DNA from: a virus
Taxonomy: Duplodnaviria; Caudoviricetes
DNA length: 64,000 bases
Virus record (IMG/VR): IMGVR_UViG_3300042731_002921
Coordinates: 20,388-84,387 of that record
Direction: 5' to 3' (one strand)
Of the stretch, positions 20,075 through 34,484 are shown in pieces; the first letter of the stretch is position 1, and each line of letters starts with the position of its first letter. The notes under the pieces are model-generated. The model made no database searches. It was not told the origin of the DNA and saw only the letters and a list, made by a program, of their open reading frames with translations. The translations under genes and the position numbers were made by a program.

Positions 20075-20385
20075 ACACATGCTCATATGAATGATTGATC
20101 AATTAAGTCTATGTATATATGAACAAATGATCTTATGAGTATATGTATATATGAACACTTGAACATATGAACTTGAACACTTGAACATTCTTTCATATGA
20201 ACATCTTCTCATATGAGCACTTGAACATATGAGCACTTGAACATATGAACTTGAACACTTGAACATTCTTTCATATGAACATCTTCTCATATGAGCACTT
20301 GAACATATGAGCACTTGAACATATGAGCACTTGAACATTCTTTCATATGAACATCTTCTCATATGAACACTTGAACATATGAACA
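20075..20385. repeat. 16-bp-period palindromic tandem array with an exact 78-bp duplication
   Basis: 13 CATATG cores, mostly 16 bp apart; unit CATATGA(G/A)CACTTGAA; 20164-20241 is identical to 20242-20319. Confidence 0.95.
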
Positions 20386-20456: not shown

Positions 20457-21515
20457 CTACATATTATACCTTATTTTTTTATATTTGTTCTTAATATCCC
20501 TAATCATAGAATATGAAACTCCGTAGTCTTTTTGAATTTTACAAGGCCGTATCCCACAAATCAATAAATTATAAATTTCTTTTTGTATTTTTTCTGGTAA
20601 TGATGCTCTTCTTCCAAGACAAGGTAAATCCTTTAACCAAATATCTATACTTCCAGCATTGATACTATATTTTTCTGCCAGTTTCTTCCTACTATATTCA
20701 CCATTAAGATAATCCTCCATTATTTTTCTTTTGTAGTATAATCGCCTAACATCTTCTTTAGATATTTTCCATACAGGTTTTTTCTGTTTAGCTGAAATTC
20801 CTTTAAGTAATTTAGATATTTTATTAGGGTCAATTTTATATTTCTTAGCTAATGTAATTTGTGTTATATGTTCATGTTTCCACTTATAAATTATCCTATC
20901 CTTCAAATCATTACAAATATGTCTACCTGATTGTTTAGTTAAAAACTTATAAATATTATTATAATCACAGAGTTTTTCATGTGGAAAATTAAGATAAGGT
21001 TCTTTTAAGTTATGTGATGCAATAACATCAAAAATCTGTGCAGCTTTTTTCTCATTACTGCAAGAACCGTAATATTTACCTTGAAAACGCACATGATACG
21101 TGTCTCCTACTTTAGTGATACCTTTATATTTAACACGACTTTGTTTATAATTAGAATTATTACCTATACTATCACTTCTATCACTATTCTTTTGATTCTG
21201 ACTCCTTGTAACCCACCTAAGATTACCAACATAATTGTTCAATCTATTTCTATCTTCATGATCAACAATAGGTAAATCATCAGGATTCTCAATAAAACTC
21301 AAAGCCGCAAGCCTATGTACTCTGTAAGTACCTCTTGCATTCTTATGCGTTAATGTTACATAATGATATTTTGGTTTACCATATAAGGAAAGCTTTACAA
21401 ATTTGCAATCTATAATATTAAAAATTTTTCCGTAATTAGACACTCTGTATTTCTCAGATAAAATATTAGCATCTTTAATACCATGTAAGGGTAGCCATAC
21501 TTCTTTTATGATCAT
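20457..21515 (-). CDS. NUMOD4-HNH homing endonuclease with AP2-like and HTH repeats
   Basis: EVWLP...YRVSNYGKI, VHRLAALSFIENPDDLPIVDHEDRNRLNNYVGNLRW, KYKGI... Confidence 0.9.
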   Translation of the reverse strand: MIIKEVWLPLHGIKDANILSEKYRVSNYGKIFNIIDCKFVKLSLYGKPKYHYVTLTHKNARGTYRVHRLAALSFIENPDDLPIVDHEDRNRLNNYVGNLRWVTRSQNQKNSDRSDSIGNNSNYKQSRVKYKGITKVGDTYHVRFQGKYYGSCSNEKKAAQIFDVIASHNLKEPYLNFPHEKLCDYNNIYKFLTKQSGRHICNDLKDRIIYKWKHEHITQITLAKKYKIDPNKISKLLKGISAKQKKPVWKISKEDVRRLYYKRKIMEDYLNGEYSRKKLAEKYSINAGSIDIWLKDLPCLGRRASLPEKIQKEIYNLLICGIRPCKIQKDYGVSYSMIRDIKNKYKKIRYNM

Positions 21516-21528
21516 CCATTGTACTCCA

Positions 21529-21756
21529 CTAAAGCGATTCCAATTCTTCCCATTCAATCTCCTTGGTCTCTTTTATTTTAACAATCTCAAAGTTATCATC
21601 AAAGAATTCAACCATAGTTTCTATATTTCTCATTAACTCATCACGAAGATCTTCTCTTATGTAATCCTCGTATCCAAACAAATTTAATAAAGCTTCTATA
21701 TATTCACCATTTTCATCATTAGATAAGTTAAAGTATTCCTGTAGTTTATCAATCAT
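21529..21756 (-). CDS. hypothetical protein
   Basis: Start MIDKLQEY after AGGAG. Confidence 0.6.
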   Translation of the reverse strand: MIDKLQEYFNLSNDENGEYIEALLNLFGYEDYIREDLRDELMRNIETMVEFFDDNFEIVKIKETKEIEWEELESL

Positions 21757-26598: not shown

Positions 26599-27263
26599 AA
26601 CGCACCTCTTTCTACATGTTTCCATGCTTTATTATTCTTTATGTTTGAAATTATATTATCACCTACACCAAATCTCTTAGCAATTTCTGTTTGTTTTAAT
26701 TTCTTCTCTGAAAGCAATCTGAGAATTTCAATAACATCATCCTCATTCAACTTACTGTTGGTTACTTTTGAGCCTTTTTGTCCGCGACCTTTATTTATTA
26801 TATCATCTATATTATCTTGTTGAGTTCCTTTAAATAAATGTTCTGGATTAACACAAGACGGGTTATCACACGTATGACACACAATATCTTCATCTGAGAG
26901 AGTATTATCTTTATAAGAAAAATAAGAAAATCTATGTGTCAACCAATGTTTATTATATTTTGAATGATTTATTTGCCAATGACCATAACCACTTGTGAGT
27001 TTATGTGCATTCCAATTCCAACACTCAAATGGAGATTTCATTTCAAAATGTTTTTCAAAGTTATCAACAGGGTCTTTTGGTTTATTAGAACATCCACATG
27101 TTTTTCTTTTTCCTAAAACTAAATCTGAAGCATTTGCAAAAGAATATCCTCCACAAGAACATTTACACATCCACTTTGTATGACAATTTTCTTTAGTATC
27201 AAGTGGATATAAAGCTTTTAATTTTCCAAATTGTTTATTTTCAATTGTTTTATATTTATTCAT
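26595..27263 (-). CDS. HNH homing endonuclease between nrdD and nrdG
   Basis: CKCSCG, CWNW...GYG, THRFSY, VCHTCDNPSCVNPEHLFKGTQQDN, C-terminal HTH. Confidence 0.92.
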   Translation of the reverse strand: MNKYKTIENKQFGKLKALYPLDTKENCHTKWMCKCSCGGYSFANASDLVLGKRKTCGCSNKPKDPVDNFEKHFEMKSPFECWNWNAHKLTSGYGHWQINHSKYNKHWLTHRFSYFSYKDNTLSDEDIVCHTCDNPSCVNPEHLFKGTQQDNIDDIINKGRGQKGSKVTNSKLNEDDVIEILRLLSEKKLKQTEIAKRFGVGDNIISNIKNNKAWKHVERGAF

Positions 27264-30246
27264 TACCAACACCTTTATAAAATTGTCTGTGAGGGAAATC
27301 TAATGTACGTCTTACTTCGTTCCAGTTAGCGACATTTGTGCAGAATCCTACAGTTCGGGTTATGTACCTGTCAACGTTACAACCACAAATTGGACAAACT
27401 TCAGCATCAATAAATACATGATTATTCTTACACCTCTTCATTACATAATTTACACTCCAATAAACAACTCCACATTTAGCAGCATAATTCATAAGATCAA
27501 CCATCGTCTGTTTATTTTTAATTTCTTCTCCTATATTTATATGGCAGACACAGCCTCCACTGAATTTATTATCAAATTTACCTTGTAAACGTATTCTTTC
27601 GAGCATATTCGCTGTTGTTGTTAATGGAATAAACTGATTACTATAAAGATGATATTTATCTTGATATTTAAGGGTTCTATCCCTTTGTGCTAATTTCACA
27701 GCAGAAGATTCACTTGGTGTTTGCTCACAAGAATGAGGACTTTTGAATCTCTTTGCCATTTTATCATTTTCTTCATTAATAATATCTAAAAGTTTAATAA
27801 CAAAATCTTCACCGTTTTCAGAAGTGATATCATATCCAAGAATTTCAAGAGCTTCATTTAAACCATTCACACCATAAGTACTATATTGTTTTGATAAATC
27901 CATATGACCAAGTGTATATAATGGCATTGCATTGAGTTCAATTCTTTTTTTAATAATATTTCTTTTACAATTATTGATTTTTGCTACTGTTCTCACGGAT
28001 TCTTTTAGAAGCTCAATGAATTTTTCATCCTTATTATTATCTTTCAATGCAATATAAGCAAGTCTTGGGAAATTCTGAGTTACTACACCAATACTCCCGA
28101 TCTTTGTACTTCCTGCACCAAAACTATTAAAATATTCATTTTCCTTGTCTGATCTCAATCGGCAACATCCTGAAATTACTGAACTTTTTCCATAAAACAT
28201 ATTAATAAAACCAAATTTCATATTTTGTTCTGCGATATACCCAAGGAAATTTTCATCTTTAATCTTACCATCCTCTACTGTAAAACAGGCAGTAACAATA
28301 GGAAATGTCAATTCAGACCTTTCAAGTTCCTCATTCATCGCTTCGATAAAAAGCTTCTGTACTTTTTTAATCGTATCAATCTTAGGAGATTTCCCATCTG
28401 CAAAAATATAATCCCCTACAAGTTCTTCAAGAAAATAATCATCATATATAGAGACATTGGTGAATGGACTTTGGTTCCCTCTGAATTCCCAATTAAGAGT
28501 GTAAATAAAACTTCTTAGCTTTTCAGAAACATATGTCCAAACCCTCTCTTTCTCGCCATTGAACTCATACCAAATATTAATTTTACCATCATCCCCACAT
28601 TTTTCATCAGAGCAATCAAAAATTCTATCTACATAATAACTCGCAACAATAAGTACATCTGCAATACCAGTAGCTCCAAGAGTAGAGTTAGCGCAATATA
28701 CGATGAACTGTTCCATTTGTCTGATAAAACTATCAAGACTCTTTGGAGGCTTTACGGTCATTCTTCTGGACATAGTAAGCCCCTCAAGGGCAACATCGTA
28801 AGTGCTATAGTTAAAGCAATTATGGCAATAAACACCGTTGCTTGAAAATCTACCAGTTTCTGTAGTTATGTCATAAACCCATTCACCTTTCCATGGCATT
28901 TTTTCAATTTTATGAATACCACCGCCTTCAAATCTACCATCAATTTTTCTATTTTTGAAAACGACATCTTTATGTTTATTTGCTTTTACACAATAGTTGC
29001 AAAATTCTTCATTATTACAGACGAAGGATACCCTGTACATCTGAAGCTTAGATTTAAAAGATTTCTCGGAATGTTGTTTACCTACCAAAGAAGTTCTTAT
29101 TCTGTTGAAACCAAGTCTTTCACATAGTGCAGCTACTTGTTGAATTAATGCAAAAGATGTGACTCTAATGTCAATCACACCTGTTAGTTTATTAATTGTT
29201 CCATCAGTATCAACTATCCCAGCTAATAGAGCTAAAGAAGAATCCTCATCTAAATTGTTACTAAATGTAGGTAGATGTTTATTTTTTGCACCAACACCAA
29301 TCATATCTGACCAGTGTGTTTTAGTAAATGGGCCATTAGAAAGACATAGTGTCTTACCACCATTCACAGTTGTATCAAAGTATTTATTAAACTTACTGTA
29401 GAAGTGTGACTCTGCTACATTCTTTTGTGTAAAGCCAATCTGTCTGCCTGTATGGCCATCACCAATCATAGCACCAACTAAATAGGCTAATTCTGGAGTC
29501 ATATAATCACAATCAATAAAAGTATTCTTAGCTTTACGTGCTGTTAAAACAGCAATATCATCTTTTGAAAGGTTCTTTGCTTCTAATCCGTCTTCATAAT
29601 CTTCTGTTATAAACGGGTGGTCTTCAGTGACAGAAAGAATAGACCCTGATTTAGTTTCTATGTTTAAAAGATCAGTATGACTCCTGTGTCTAAGCACTCT
29701 TGACATTGGAACGAAATTCTTACCATCAAAAACTTTAATACCTTGACTAAATAAGTTGATCTCCTCCATATCATCTTTAATATCTACCAAATGAGAATAT
29801 TTATTAAACAATTCTTCCATTGTAATCTCACCATTTTCATCAGTCAGAATACTTGTTTGTGGGTGATATGAATATGGACGTGCTACATCAGAAAAATCAT
29901 TTATGTAAATTTCACCAGATATCTGTTTTTCAATAATCTGATTCGCCTCTAAAAGACCATAAGATGTCCTAAGTTGCTTCCAAAGTAAATAATGCGAATT
30001 ATATTTCTGCAATGGTTTTTGAAACTCAAAATTATAATCAATAACACTTCGTCCGCTTATATTACTATTATCATCAACACTAACATCAGCAGTTGTTGTA
30101 TTATTATTAAAAAAATCCTTAGAAAACTTATTCAAATCAAGCTGATCACCTATACCATTTTCCGTGAAAACTCTTCTTCCGTATTTAGCCCACAAGTGCA
30201 TCATCAGAGTGTTAAAATCTTCATCCCAACCAATTTTGATATACAT
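27256..30246 (-). CDS. nrdD: class III anaerobic ribonucleotide reductase with intein
   Basis: GEIYIND...RPY|CF, RGNQSPFTN, GCCRL, GSIGVVT, EQTPSES, FSGG, C-terminal TRTVGF glycyl-radical loop and Zn ribbon. Confidence 0.95.
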   Translation of the reverse strand: MYIKIGWDEDFNTLMMHLWAKYGRRVFTENGIGDQLDLNKFSKDFFNNNTTTADVSVDDNSNISGRSVIDYNFEFQKPLQKYNSHYLLWKQLRTSYGLLEANQIIEKQISGEIYINDFSDVARPYSYHPQTSILTDENGEITMEELFNKYSHLVDIKDDMEEINLFSQGIKVFDGKNFVPMSRVLRHRSHTDLLNIETKSGSILSVTEDHPFITEDYEDGLEAKNLSKDDIAVLTARKAKNTFIDCDYMTPELAYLVGAMIGDGHTGRQIGFTQKNVAESHFYSKFNKYFDTTVNGGKTLCLSNGPFTKTHWSDMIGVGAKNKHLPTFSNNLDEDSSLALLAGIVDTDGTINKLTGVIDIRVTSFALIQQVAALCERLGFNRIRTSLVGKQHSEKSFKSKLQMYRVSFVCNNEEFCNYCVKANKHKDVVFKNRKIDGRFEGGGIHKIEKMPWKGEWVYDITTETGRFSSNGVYCHNCFNYSTYDVALEGLTMSRRMTVKPPKSLDSFIRQMEQFIVYCANSTLGATGIADVLIVASYYVDRIFDCSDEKCGDDGKINIWYEFNGEKERVWTYVSEKLRSFIYTLNWEFRGNQSPFTNVSIYDDYFLEELVGDYIFADGKSPKIDTIKKVQKLFIEAMNEELERSELTFPIVTACFTVEDGKIKDENFLGYIAEQNMKFGFINMFYGKSSVISGCCRLRSDKENEYFNSFGAGSTKIGSIGVVTQNFPRLAYIALKDNNKDEKFIELLKESVRTVAKINNCKRNIIKKRIELNAMPLYTLGHMDLSKQYSTYGVNGLNEALEILGYDITSENGEDFVIKLLDIINEENDKMAKRFKSPHSCEQTPSESSAVKLAQRDRTLKYQDKYHLYSNQFIPLTTTANMLERIRLQGKFDNKFSGGCVCHINIGEEIKNKQTMVDLMNYAAKCGVVYWSVNYVMKRCKNNHVFIDAEVCPICGCNVDRYITRTVGFCTNVANWNEVRRTLDFPHRQFYKGVGNE
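28819..29871 (-). mobile_element. LAGLIDADG intein in NrdD (351 aa, Ser1)
   Basis: Starts SYHPQTSILT, TEDHPF block B, VGAMIGDG / LAGIVDTDG, ends VYCHN before Cys+1. Confidence 0.92.
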
Positions 30247-30271
30247 TCCATTCTCCTTTAAATTAACCACT

Positions 30272-30757: not shown

Positions 30758-31078
30758 GTTGTCTTTTATATCATTCGTACATTTTTTCCGTGAATCCCAA
30801 TATTGGAATGAGCTATCTATGTCTTTTATTAACCTTATAGTTTGATTTTGGCTTAGTTATCTTACAATATCAAATACAAGATCATCTACGTCATAAACTG
30901 TATTGAGTTCAATTCTCATACAAACTACTACCTTTATACTCCTCATCTAAAAAATAAATCTCACCTCTCCAAGACGATTCTTTACAGTATCTAATAGCTT
31001 CCTCCTTAGAATTAAATTCTTTAAATTCATAATCAGTAACAGTATGGTAATCGTTGTCGAAAATACATATCTTAAACT

Positions 31079-32161
31079 TCATACAAACATCTCCTTATAA
31101 TAAGAATATTTCTTCATAATTTCATCTTTAAAACCACAAGAAAATTTACCCTCCTTGCATAGCCCGTTTCTATATACACAATTCGGTACAAGCATCTTAG
31201 CTAAAAGATGATTCTTCTTCTCTATCTCTTTCTTAATCAAATTCATAATATAAACTGTTTCTTTATGTGAACATAAGCATAATCTCTTTCTTGCGATATT
31301 AATAAGAGCTTCTGCGTTTACAAACATAGTGTGATTGACCGGCGTTAATCTGTGAGGAATATTTTCAACTATATCTGGAAAATTTACGTAGGCATACTCC
31401 CCGAAGTATTCTAAAGCTGCTTTATCATAAGCAATTGCCGCATCTTCTGGTGTAGAAAATACCCCTAAAAAAACAGAATGATCCCCTACATATATACTTG
31501 AGTTGTAGCTGTCACCTTTTCTTCTAACACCTTTATAAGCAACCTCTTTCCCAACCTCCTGTATTGAATTCATAGCATTTAGTTGCTTAGTACTTGCTCT
31601 TAAATTTTCGATTTTGTCATTCAATGTATTTCTATCGATATGATCCACAATTGGTGGTTTATACCCGTTCAACATCACAAAAACAATAACACTTCTGTAC
31701 ATCTTTTCATTTTTATATGTAATTACCCAACGGTTTAGACTTTTATTTAAGCCCCCAGATTTGTCACCAATTGAAGCATTTTTTGAATTTGCATGTATTT
31801 TCCAATATAATTCTCCGTCTTTATACTCAAAGATTTCATTTAGTGCTTTTTGCGTGAAACCTTTGTAAGTTAAAGAACTACCAGAATTAATTTCTTTATT
31901 AATTCTGTCATCTCTACTTGTCAAAACAAAATGTTCTACACCTATTTTATGACGTACCATATGAACAGAAACAAAACTTGGTATGTTTTTCATTTCTATA
32001 CAATACTCATCCTGCCTCAGAGGACTATGCTCCATCAAATAAGAATTTAAATCAGAAACATTAGAATTAAACCTAACAGTACTATCGAACGCTTTCTTTT
32101 TCCAGTGTCTTGATTTAGTCTCAGTAACTATAATCTCATAATTATTTCTATCTGCTTTCAA
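31079..32161 (-). CDS. thyX: FAD-dependent thymidylate synthase with in-frame HNH-AP2 insertion
   Basis: EHSPLR, SVHMVRHKIG...TSRDDR | insert | HRLTPVNH...NAEALINIARKRLC...LVPNCVYRNGLC. Confidence 0.88.
   Translation of the reverse strand: MKADRNNYEIIVTETKSRHWKKKAFDSTVRFNSNVSDLNSYLMEHSPLRQDEYCIEMKNIPSFVSVHMVRHKIGVEHFVLTSRDDRINKEINSGSSLTYKGFTQKALNEIFEYKDGELYWKIHANSKNASIGDKSGGLNKSLNRWVITYKNEKMYRSVIVFVMLNGYKPPIVDHIDRNTLNDKIENLRASTKQLNAMNSIQEVGKEVAYKGVRRKGDSYNSSIYVGDHSVFLGVFSTPEDAAIAYDKAALEYFGEYAYVNFPDIVENIPHRLTPVNHTMFVNAEALINIARKRLCLCSHKETVYIMNLIKKEIEKKNHLLAKMLVPNCVYRNGLCKEGKFSCGFKDEIMKKYSYYKEMFV
31358..31903 (-). mobile_element. HNH-AP2 endonuclease module fused in frame within thyX (~182 aa)
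   Basis: FEYKDGELYW, IVDHIDRNTLNDKIENLR, YKGV...FLGVFSTPEDAAIAYDKAALEYFGEYAYVNFP; no stop and no intein ends. Confidence 0.85.
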
Positions 32162-32528
32162 TTTTTCTCCTTTGTAATCTCTACTTTTTCATAGCAAATA
32201 TCATTAACACAATAGCTCTCTTTATTAACTTCAAACAAGTTTAGTCTATCATAAATACCCTTCAGTAGCAACAATTCATAATATTTTTCTTTGTTGTATC
32301 TCAATAAATAATTAAGATGTTCTTCTAAATCTTTGTATTCTTTATACTCCATTAAATAACCTCCGAAGAACACGCGGGACATAAGCACCACTCCATACCG
32401 TATTCTTTAACTATAAATGGATCATTTCCATACCAACCACAGCCAAAGCACTGGTAGTAATCATCCTCGTACTCATCTTCAAAGTCAACTCTTTCTCTGT
32501 TCTCGTAAATATCCTCTTCCTTACTCAT
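32158..32528 (-). CDS. two small ORFs (32158-32352; 32352-32528 Zn-ribbon)
   Basis: CFGCGW...CPAC in the 32352-32528 ORF; RBS-supported starts. Confidence 0.6.
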
Positions 32529-32687: not shown

Positions 32688-34484
32688 TTATTCTCCGTAA
32701 TATTTTTCTTGGTATTTAATCCAACTTGATGTTTTATAAATTATTGGATACTTCATCTTAACAAACTTCCAAATTGGCATATTCTCATATCTTCTACAAA
32801 GATAATCAAGTGAAATTTCTATTAAACTGTAATTCCCATCATGGACTTCATTCAATAAGAAAATACCTCTAAATTCATTATTCCCTTGTGGACCTCTATA
32901 AATCTCATCCTCAATATAAAAAGAGCCACAAACAAGACCCCTGATTACTTTACCATTATTCAGGGATTTAACACCTACTTCATAAGTTTGCTGATGTCCG
33001 GCGCAAAAGGAAAAACCAATCTTATTGAGTCTATTTGTTATTGTACCACCAACAGGGTTACCGCTTAGAGGTAATGTAAAATAATGACTATAAGAAACAC
33101 CATCAATCTCTACAATCTTAAGGAAGTTATGAACATTCCAACCAAAATCTTTGTATTTAAGATCATCAGGACTCATAAGGCCATCAAGTTTAGGATCATT
33201 CTCTATTGCTTTATTTATTCTACAGTTACCAGAAAAAATTGTTTTATAATTTCTTCTTGTTAGTAATGTCTCATTATCTACAGAGGCACACCACACAATA
33301 CCGTCATAGTCAAGTTCTTTTGTTAAAAAATCTTTGGTTCTCGTTTTACACTTTTTGGTAATGTTAACTCTCCAATGACCTTTCCGGTACTCTTTTAATG
33401 TTGCTCTAATACCGTGTAATACACAGGCAATTTGCATATCTTCACAAATTGTCTTTTGTCCATAAAATACTCTACTTTCTGTCATTCTCGTAGGTAAAGT
33501 CCCATCACAAAAAATCATTACGTCAAGAAATAAATTAAACTGCCTTTTGCTTAATTCAAAAACCCATTCCGGCAATCTTTTATTATTATCAACGCACCAT
33601 TCTGGTCTTGTCATAAAGAATTCATAAGATTTCTGTGGTTTGTTTTTAAGCTTTTTACCACAGACGTGTGTGATACTCCGCTCTCTTGAACTTTCTCTAT
33701 ACTCAACTTCAGAATTCTCAATAATTGCTTTAATAGTGTCCTTACCTGATTCAGATTGGTAAAATACTAAACTATTATACTTACCATGATACGAATCAGT
33801 TAGTGCAACAGCATTGAACTGGATTTGTTCATCAGTTAGTGGATACTCATTTATAATTTCAATCTCGGCTGTATTGTAAATATCACTACAAGTTGAACAA
33901 TCTTTAGCGAAAGATTCTTTTATATTTCCACCAGAAGTTTCCCAAAAGACATTATGTTTTGGAGTTACACATATAGAAACAGTTGACGTTTCATATTCTA
34001 AAAGTTTTCCTTTGTACTCTCTTTTAATGATATTTTTTACTTTTTGCCATTCACCTATTTTCCTTTCTTTGTTGAAAGTATAAACAATTTCTCCGATATT
34101 AATTTCTTCAAATAGCTTCCAACCATCTTTTGTTAAAACTTCTGTTTTGTCATCATAACATTCATGATTTCCAATTACCAAATGCATCTCAGGTCTATAC
34201 ATCTTATGTTTGTTTTGTCTTTGTCTTTCATTGTAATCCAGCAATGGCTTACAAAGAATACCCATAGCGTTATGAGCAGAATCAATATCTTTCTTGTATC
34301 TTCTCCCTTCAAATTGAATTTTACCAAAATCATATTGTGATAGGGAACTCATATCAGCAAAATCACCAAGTTGAACAATTACTTCAGGTCTTTTTTCAAC
34401 AATGTATTCACCGCACCAAGCAAGCATATCAGTAGGTGATTCAGGTTTAATTTGTGTATCAGGTACTACAAGATGTCTTCTCAA
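32688..34484 (-). CDS. calcineurin-like metallophosphoesterase with intein
   Basis: PDTQ, LGDFAD, GNHE, YSHYF, AGHQQ motifs. Confidence 0.9.
   Translation of the reverse strand: MRRHLVVPDTQIKPESPTDMLAWCGEYIVEKRPEVIVQLGDFADMSSLSQYDFGKIQFEGRRYKKDIDSAHNAMGILCKPLLDYNERQRQNKHKMYRPEMHLVIGNHECYDDKTEVLTKDGWKLFEEINIGEIVYTFNKERKIGEWQKVKNIIKREYKGKLLEYETSTVSICVTPKHNVFWETSGGNIKESFAKDCSTCSDIYNTAEIEIINEYPLTDEQIQFNAVALTDSYHGKYNSLVFYQSESGKDTIKAIIENSEVEYRESSRERSITHVCGKKLKNKPQKSYEFFMTRPEWCVDNNKRLPEWVFELSKRQFNLFLDVMIFCDGTLPTRMTESRVFYGQKTICEDMQIACVLHGIRATLKEYRKGHWRVNITKKCKTRTKDFLTKELDYDGIVWCASVDNETLLTRRNYKTIFSGNCRINKAIENDPKLDGLMSPDDLKYKDFGWNVHNFLKIVEIDGVSYSHYFTLPLSGNPVGGTITNRLNKIGFSFCAGHQQTYEVGVKSLNNGKVIRGLVCGSFYIEDEIYRGPQGNNEFRGIFLLNEVHDGNYSLIEISLDYLCRRYENMPIWKFVKMKYPIIYKTSSWIKYQEKYYGE
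33225..34160 (-). mobile_element. intein (312 aa) with LAGLIDADG-like core, ends Gly-Asn
   Basis: GNHE|CYDDKTEVLTKDGW, VTPKHNVFW, VWCASV, IFSGN|C. Confidence 0.9.

Follow-up and report, generated by a model that had tools for sequence, protein, structure and literature searches.

The open reading frame (ORF) at positions 31079 to 32161 lies on the minus strand of a 64,000-nucleotide stretch of phage DNA (hereafter the window), which is part of the complete 84,387-bp genome, with direct terminal repeats, of an uncultured phage assembled from a wetland metagenome. The ORF encodes 360 amino acids followed by a stop codon and contains no internal stop, as the initial annotation of this region had also noted. 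It starts with TTG, an AGGAG sequence is located 5 nt upstream, and both its start and its stop overlap small neighboring ORFs, as in a tightly packed operon. The product is a ThyX-fold protein with an HNH-AP2 module. A search of the complete 84-kb phage genome found no ThyA gene and no second Thy1 gene, leaving this ORF as the only thymidylate-synthase-like gene. When the 6 kb around the gene was compared with deposited phages by megablast, no match was found.

The initial annotation had proposed that the motifs RDDR and HRLTPVNH, expected to be only a few residues apart in phage ThyX, are separated here by about 182 aa (31358-31903) that form a whole HNH plus AP2 module, and it had suggested an alignment with uninterrupted relatives. 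Such an alignment placed the insert at residues 87-270 (31352-31903), that is, 184 aa between RDDR and RLTPVNH, within two codons of the earlier estimate. The empty site is indeed short: the gap from RxDR to RxxPVNH spans only 7-11 residues in insert-free relatives, for example in the viral contig L006 and in Clostridium phage FA67 ORF49. The site is the same in both forms, since RDDR and RFSPINH in L006 are joined by HGDPDAD at the position where the window protein has its 184 aa between RDDR and RLTPVNH. Only the leading H of the proposed second motif has to be given up, as it belongs to a variable linker.

The host enzyme

The two host parts flank the insert on the minus strand. The N-terminal part (residues 1-86, 31904..32161) contains the motifs EHSPxR, VRHKIGVEHFV and SRDDR, matches positions 36-82 of the Thy1 profile and was modeled with a pLDDT of 87-96. 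The C-terminal part (residues 271-360, 31082..31351) contains RLTPVNH, NAEALINIARKRLC and a cysteine-rich tail, CVYRNGLCKE..C, matches Thy1 profile positions 147-187 and reached a pLDDT of 92-97. In the window protein as a whole, Thy1 (PF02511) scored 23.2 bits, just under the gathering cut-off of 24.8, in two stretches that flank it (residues 33-77 and about 275-315 around the insert). Relatives of the protein pass this cut-off at 27-40 bits.

Canonical ThyX proteins carry the motif RHRxxSxxxxSxRY. The corresponding sequence of the window protein is VRHKIGVEHFVLTSRDDR, in which R-H is retained, Lys replaces the third Arg, and the spacing from R-H-K to (T/S)xRxDR differs from that of the canonical motif. 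The model of the insert-free L006 ortholog (pLDDT 93.6, pTM 0.90) has the same secondary-structure elements as the host part of the fusion, and it matched five ThyX/PolB structures with Z scores of 13.4, 13.4, 12.6, 12.4 and 11.8 (about 140 residues aligned, rmsd 2.7-3.6), while the next-best match had a Z of 5.1. The top Foldseek matches were all ThyX. A search of PDB sequences with the family sequence profile returned no solved ThyX and only a non-significant CCCH zinc-finger-like match at the cysteine tail. The host is a member of a remote ThyX-fold family, which we call mini-ThyX, and not a canonical ThyX. Compared with the latter (PF02511; PDB 3ah5, 1o26), it shares the fold (Z 13 over about 145 residues) and keeps the R-H-(K/R) start of the motif, whereas the protein is only ~180 aa long, the motif is altered, the central ~50 residues are cut to a loop and a cysteine tail is added. 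The ThyX assignment of the initial annotation therefore stands for the fold and not for canonical membership, because RDDR and RLTPVNH are divergent mini-ThyX motifs.

Using the insert-free profile, we found 1,710 clusters (50% identity) of this family at E<=1e-3 and 471 at E<=1e-30. The members are about 180 aa long and share the motifs EHSPIR, VRHKxGVEHFVxxxRxDR, RxTPVNH, NAQALIxxxRKRLC and VPxCVYRNGxCPE..C. Four cysteines are invariant or nearly so (C295, C328, C335 and C341/342, within 31082-31351 on the minus strand of the window), and the C-terminal tail is not covered by ThyX structures. The cysteines might bind a metal or a cluster, and together with the extra tail they suggest a chemistry different from that of canonical ThyX. 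In the two deposited phage genomes examined, the family is unannotated. Some members are fused to a dCMP deaminase, MazG or guanylate-kinase-like domain (among P0118, P0077, P0115, P0078 and P0114), and the gene adjoins ribonucleotide reductase genes in three phages; both observations point to a role in pyrimidine-nucleotide metabolism. Separately, HNH_3 matched weakly at the C-terminus of two long family members, which would represent a different type of nuclease fusion.

Relatives without an insert occur among deposited and metagenomic sequences; they include gp15 of Bacteroides phage BS-TP1, ORF49 of Clostridium phage FA67 and some 30 proteins with a length of about 200 aa. The closest ones are encoded on the viral contigs L005 and L006 and are 78% identical. 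L006 is syntenic with the window and shares the small zinc-ribbon-like ORF upstream, with NrdD located downstream of its 184-aa ORF (L006:5001-5555). Across the family, most members have 7-11 residues at the insertion site and some have an excursion of 40-50 aa. The site also coincides with Thy1 profile positions of about 83-146, the segment of canonical ThyX that is cut to a loop here. These two properties indicate that the insertion site is naturally variable in length. Directly before the insertion lies the motif aligned with the substrate-binding loop of ThyX, so that the insert may affect catalysis.

A low-depth contig of 255 nt from the same wetland run matched 59 nt of the host C-terminal part (window 31272-31330) and then diverged. 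Its loose end translates as DDGRWTPTVH. This contig gives a weak hint that a related allele without the insert may co-occur with the window phage.

The inserted nuclease

The insert begins with a linker (residues 87-101, 31859..31903, minus strand) whose sequence and length vary among carriers of the insertion, with pairwise identities of 0-60%; free-standing relatives of the nuclease stop short of it. The homing-endonuclease core follows (residues 102-260, 31382..31858, minus strand), with I-HmuI-like N-terminal strands, an HNH_3 domain and an AP2 domain. HNH_3 (PF13392) was detected at residues 156-197 with 38.6 bits against a cut-off of 24.8, and its catalytic motif, D173, H174, N186, N195 and N198, is encoded at 31571-31696 on the minus strand. 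The AP2 DNA-binding domain (about 31370-31543, minus strand) gave a weak Pfam match (PF00847, residues 209-254), with 14 bits being under the 33.3-bit cut-off; the carrier P0068 reaches 27.6 bits. The AP2 fold is a three-stranded sheet packed on a helix. Structure comparison found this fold in the module, with 2gcc as a match at Z 7.8 (56 residues aligned, rmsd 2.5, 38% identity), besides WRINKLED1 at Z 6.8 and TEM1 at Z 6.1. For the nuclease part, I-HmuI (1u3e) was matched at Z 7.1 (structure comparison, VIA). The insert ends with a second linker (residues 261-270, 31352..31381, minus strand), which differs between carriers and does not end in His-Asn.

The AlphaFold (AF2) monomer model of the fusion had an overall pLDDT of 81.9. 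Its nuclease and AP2 parts were mostly confident, and residues 84-94 and 255-267 fell below 50. Compared with ThyX, the fusion model gave Z 13.1 over 151 aligned residues, which cover both host halves.

More than 70 free-standing relatives of the module were found in viral contigs. They measure 160-200 aa from stop to stop and match residues of about 16-174 out of the 184 of the insert, so that about 160 of these residues are nuclease. It follows that the insert comprises a complete HNH-AP2 homing endonuclease framed by an N-terminal linker of ~15 and a C-terminal linker of ~10 residues. The module shares the family, domain order, size and catalytic motif with free-standing HNH-AP2/I-HmuI-like phage endonucleases (PHROG 99; the HNH proteins of RB49 and T5-like phages; PDB 1u3e). 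These relatives, on the other hand, have their own start and stop and lie between genes or within group I introns, whereas the module in the window has neither codon. The window ORF contains no internal Shine-Dalgarno sequence with a canonical start for the nuclease, which suggests that the nuclease is made only as a fusion here. One carrier shows a different arrangement. In P0008 (L088:3125-3150), the host codons for R-E-D-R (CGGGAGGATAGG) form GGAGG, 8 nt before an in-frame ATG that is the second codon of the insert and has no equivalent in the window. This ATG is a possible internal start, which would give a nuclease fused to the host C-terminal half.

Neighboring elements in the genome

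Several other elements are located near the gene. NrdD (1004 aa, window 27256-30270, minus strand) contains a canonical intein with LAGLIDADG (Pfam Intein_splicing, residues 141-484), while the NrdD of L006 has 607 aa and no intein. A metallophosphoesterase of 598 aa (phrog_221, window 32688-34484, minus strand) has 573 residues that cover only 251 profile positions. Its insert of about 320 aa begins with a Cys directly after the GNHE motif; although Pfam found no intein there, this insert probably represents a second one. A free-standing NUMOD4-HNH_3-HTH homing endonuclease (366 aa, window 20457-21557, minus strand) is a distant relative of the insert, and beside it, at 20099-20362, is an ORF built from a unit of about 26 aa (MRRCSYERMFKCS...) that occurs three times in tandem. 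Outside the window, a third HNH relative was noted (G000:C1:19333-19701).

Nine carriers of the same insertion

The same module was found at the same site in eight further metagenomic proteins (P0003-P0008, P0068 and P0130). The nine carriers fall into separate 50-90% clusters, the frame is kept across both junctions in all of them, and their inserts measure 178-185 aa. Between carriers, the host parts are 40-74% identical and the nuclease parts 38-87%. The GC content of the insert equals that of the host gene in both DNAs that could be compared, those of the window and of L088. A search for longer fused forms of the insert-free protein P0009 returned only the known carriers and one unrelated fusion.

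We therefore consider the locus to be, with a probability of about 0.7, a site-specific HNH-AP2 homing element that persists in a mini-ThyX gene as an inserted domain without splicing. The initial annotation had proposed either a non-splicing insertion in a tolerated loop or an unrecognised RNA or protein processing event, and every computational test (architecture, fold, carriers and trees) fits the former. The following sections examine the evidence together with the competing explanations.

Distribution and phylogeny

Trees were computed for the host (106 rows) and for the nuclease (71 rows). In the host tree, the carriers are limited to the half of the family with the RxTPVNH motif, where they are interleaved with insert-free alleles. 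One clade with support 97 joins the carriers P0001 and P0003 with the insert-free L005, L006 and P0009, and another with support 99 joins the carriers P0007 and P0130 with the insert-free P0071. Well-supported branches of this tree force at least five changes of the carrier state, and the AU test rejected a single carrier clade (lnL difference 282, p 2e-53). By contrast, the nine inserts need only one change on the nuclease tree, and none of 500 shuffles was as low. Eight of the nine inserted nucleases form a clade with an SH-aLRT of 93, whereas all nine together reach only 50. The divergences of the two partners were discordant in two groups: in P0006/P0007/P0130 the nucleases are 85-87% identical and the hosts 65-71%, and in P0001/P0003 the hosts are 74% identical and the nucleases 50%. 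Overall, however, nuclease and host identities correlated (r 0.77 over 36 non-independent pairs).

This correlation, together with the matched GC content, indicates that the association of insert and host is old. For the same reasons, much of its history may be vertical inheritance with repeated loss and not active homing; gain by homing and repeated loss can be separated only in part. Alternatively, the HNH-AP2 module may be a domesticated accessory domain, vertically inherited with many losses and not currently selfish, which might tether the enzyme to DNA or cut host or competitor DNA. Consistent with such a domain are similar and correlated divergences of nuclease and host, a composition fully ameliorated in two genomes and a deep association among carriers that can be only 40-50% identical. 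Nevertheless, we consider domestication unlikely, since close insert-free alleles nest among carriers in both clades described above, one carrier clade is rejected, the two discordant groups depart from the common trend, and the nearest relatives of the module are ordinary free-standing phage homing endonucleases.

Absence of known splicing signatures

No Hint or intein match was found by Pfam in the ORF at E<=1. No Cys, Ser or Thr stands at the start of the insert, the first residues in the nine carriers being I, I, I, R, L, L, I, I and L. No His-Asn is present at its end either; the ends vary, and the residue that follows is the conserved Arg of the host itself in all nine. Moreover, the insert is too short for Hint plus nuclease. 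An intein was therefore rejected, with no Hint domain and no conserved junction residue besides the host Arg, in agreement with the initial annotation, which had seen neither an intein block nor an HN end.

The same annotation had argued that there is no room for an intron core. Rfam searches of the window region and of L088, with gathering thresholds and with E<=10, returned no intron family. Protein-level conservation extends over the whole insert, whose length varies by whole codons (178-185 aa), and so no non-coding room is left. A group I or group II intron was rejected on these grounds, as the insert is in frame and protein-conserved across nine carriers. Ribosomal bypass was rejected as well, because the 552 nt are conserved coding sequence, unlike a coding gap. 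No RNA run was found that contains the stretch.

Beyond these known classes, the module might leave the protein after translation through a process invisible to our searches, or be removed by non-canonical RNA splicing. This could take the form of a new protein excision, of linker proteolysis with host fragments assembling non-covalently, or of RNA splicing with a core that overlaps the coding sequence. The linkers that contain the two junctions are variable, were modeled with low confidence and would be open to proteases, the missing known signatures leave room for unknown chemistry, and at least one canonical intein is located close by in the same genome. We nevertheless judge processing of this kind quite unlikely. 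The junctions have no conserved residue besides the host Arg, no Hint or intron match was obtained, and a ribozyme core would find no room because amino-acid conservation and frame run through the whole insert in nine carriers. A more specific version, in which the variable linkers at conserved positions mark a new Hint-free excision, or a programmed cleavage that frees the nuclease and leaves a two-piece enzyme, appears very unlikely. If it did occur, it would represent a third route, besides introns and inteins, out of a host gene product.

Conservation of both partners

The catalytic residues D173, H174, N186, N195 and N198 are invariant in seven carriers. Of the 225 host positions with at least 90% conservation among 95 insert-free proteins, the carriers keep 212 (94%), and their terminal branches in the host tree are no longer than those of insert-free members. 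With catalytic and family-conserved residues kept and terminal branches not long, both partners look functional. A pseudogene was rejected, given the retained host residues and the intact ORFs of all nine carriers.

This bears on the possibility that the insertion is a lesion, with the host enzyme dead in carriers and the gene decaying or dispensable. The insertion does adjoin the motif aligned with the ThyX substrate loop, and many phages lack the mini-ThyX family, hence the enzyme may be dispensable. Yet a lesion is highly improbable in view of the conservation and branch lengths just given, and of nine ORFs that have stayed intact at 40-74% pairwise host identity.

Finally, an assembly or gene-calling artefact that joined a nuclease gene to two gene fragments, which is conceivable for a metagenome-assembled viral contig and which the initial annotation had listed as a possible refutation, can be dismissed: an independent Logan contig of 22,285 nt from a run that is possibly the source sample spans 30800-32400 with 0 differences, and the same architecture occurs in eight proteins from other metagenomes, including P0008, whose DNA (L088, a 51.6-kb contig) has the same structure.

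Discussion

Our analysis points to a site-specific homing element that is carried as a translated domain of its host enzyme. In the proposed mechanism, a natural length-variable excursion of the ThyX fold would be occupied in frame by an HNH-AP2 homing endonuclease gene, and the gene would be transcribed and translated as one 360-aa polypeptide, as a single chain without RNA or protein splicing. The enzyme is proposed to tolerate the module because flexible linkers on both sides let the module fold as a domain of its own. During co-infection, the fusion-borne nuclease would cleave alleles without the insert in related phages, within or close to the stretch that encodes the conserved RxDR / RxTPVNH motifs, and recombinational repair would then copy the module in. 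Site-specific cleavage of the insert-free allele is suggested by the constant insertion site together with the patchy distribution. We infer that the interrupted enzyme is active, and the fusion presumably escapes processing.

Several known systems resemble this arrangement in part. The ShiLan domain of mycobacteriophage DNA methylases is an in-frame insertion of ~200 aa without intein or intron (Gosselin et al. 2023, PMC9957025; Arsenault, Gosselin & Gogarten 2025, PMC11855218). Its authors read it as an unspliced homing element, and an AU test rejects a single clan (PMC9957025, PMC11855218). Judged by the features described in these two papers, the mini-ThyX insertion likewise shows in-frame read-through without a stop, no splicing element, a constant site and a patchy distribution on the host tree that rejects one clan; the ShiLan domain is predicted to loop out. 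The two systems differ in that the ShiLan HNH is out of frame and its in-frame product is a hairpin-like filler, whereas the nuclease here is the in-frame domain. The ShiLan host is also a methylase, while here an HNH_3 plus AP2 nuclease resides in a mini-ThyX host. Taj_79-type actinophage methylases contain a lone in-frame LAGLIDADG domain without an intein (PMC9957025). As proposed for our case, the endonuclease is translated within a host enzyme and predicted to form its own domain with the host fold unchanged. Those carriers, however, form one clan in one phage cluster, whereas the HNH-AP2 carriers are scattered and deeply diverged. HNH-containing inteins are known in ThyX of mycobacteriophages (PMC5050341; bioRxiv 10.1101/2025.01.02.630785), and there too an HNH nuclease is in frame in a ThyX-type phage gene. 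Unlike the window insert, those elements have a Hint domain and junction nucleophiles. In the literature we found no paper on an in-frame HNH-AP2 module in a ThyX-fold gene.

The analysis also draws attention to the mini-ThyX-fold enzymes of phages as a large family, with >1,700 clusters at 50% identity and a shared cluster of cysteines. According to the textbook view, a homing endonuclease in a useful gene needs an intron or intein for its removal, or else it is located between genes. The mini-ThyX insertion would exemplify a third solution, one that is old in evolution and recurs: the host enzyme carries a whole nuclease as an internal domain, translated with it at a spare loop. If this is true, the definition of a mobile element used by annotation pipelines would widen, and the family would offer a compact insertion-tolerant scaffold together with a new set of site-specific HNH-AP2 nucleases. 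It would also provide a natural model for how selfish DNA makes multidomain proteins.
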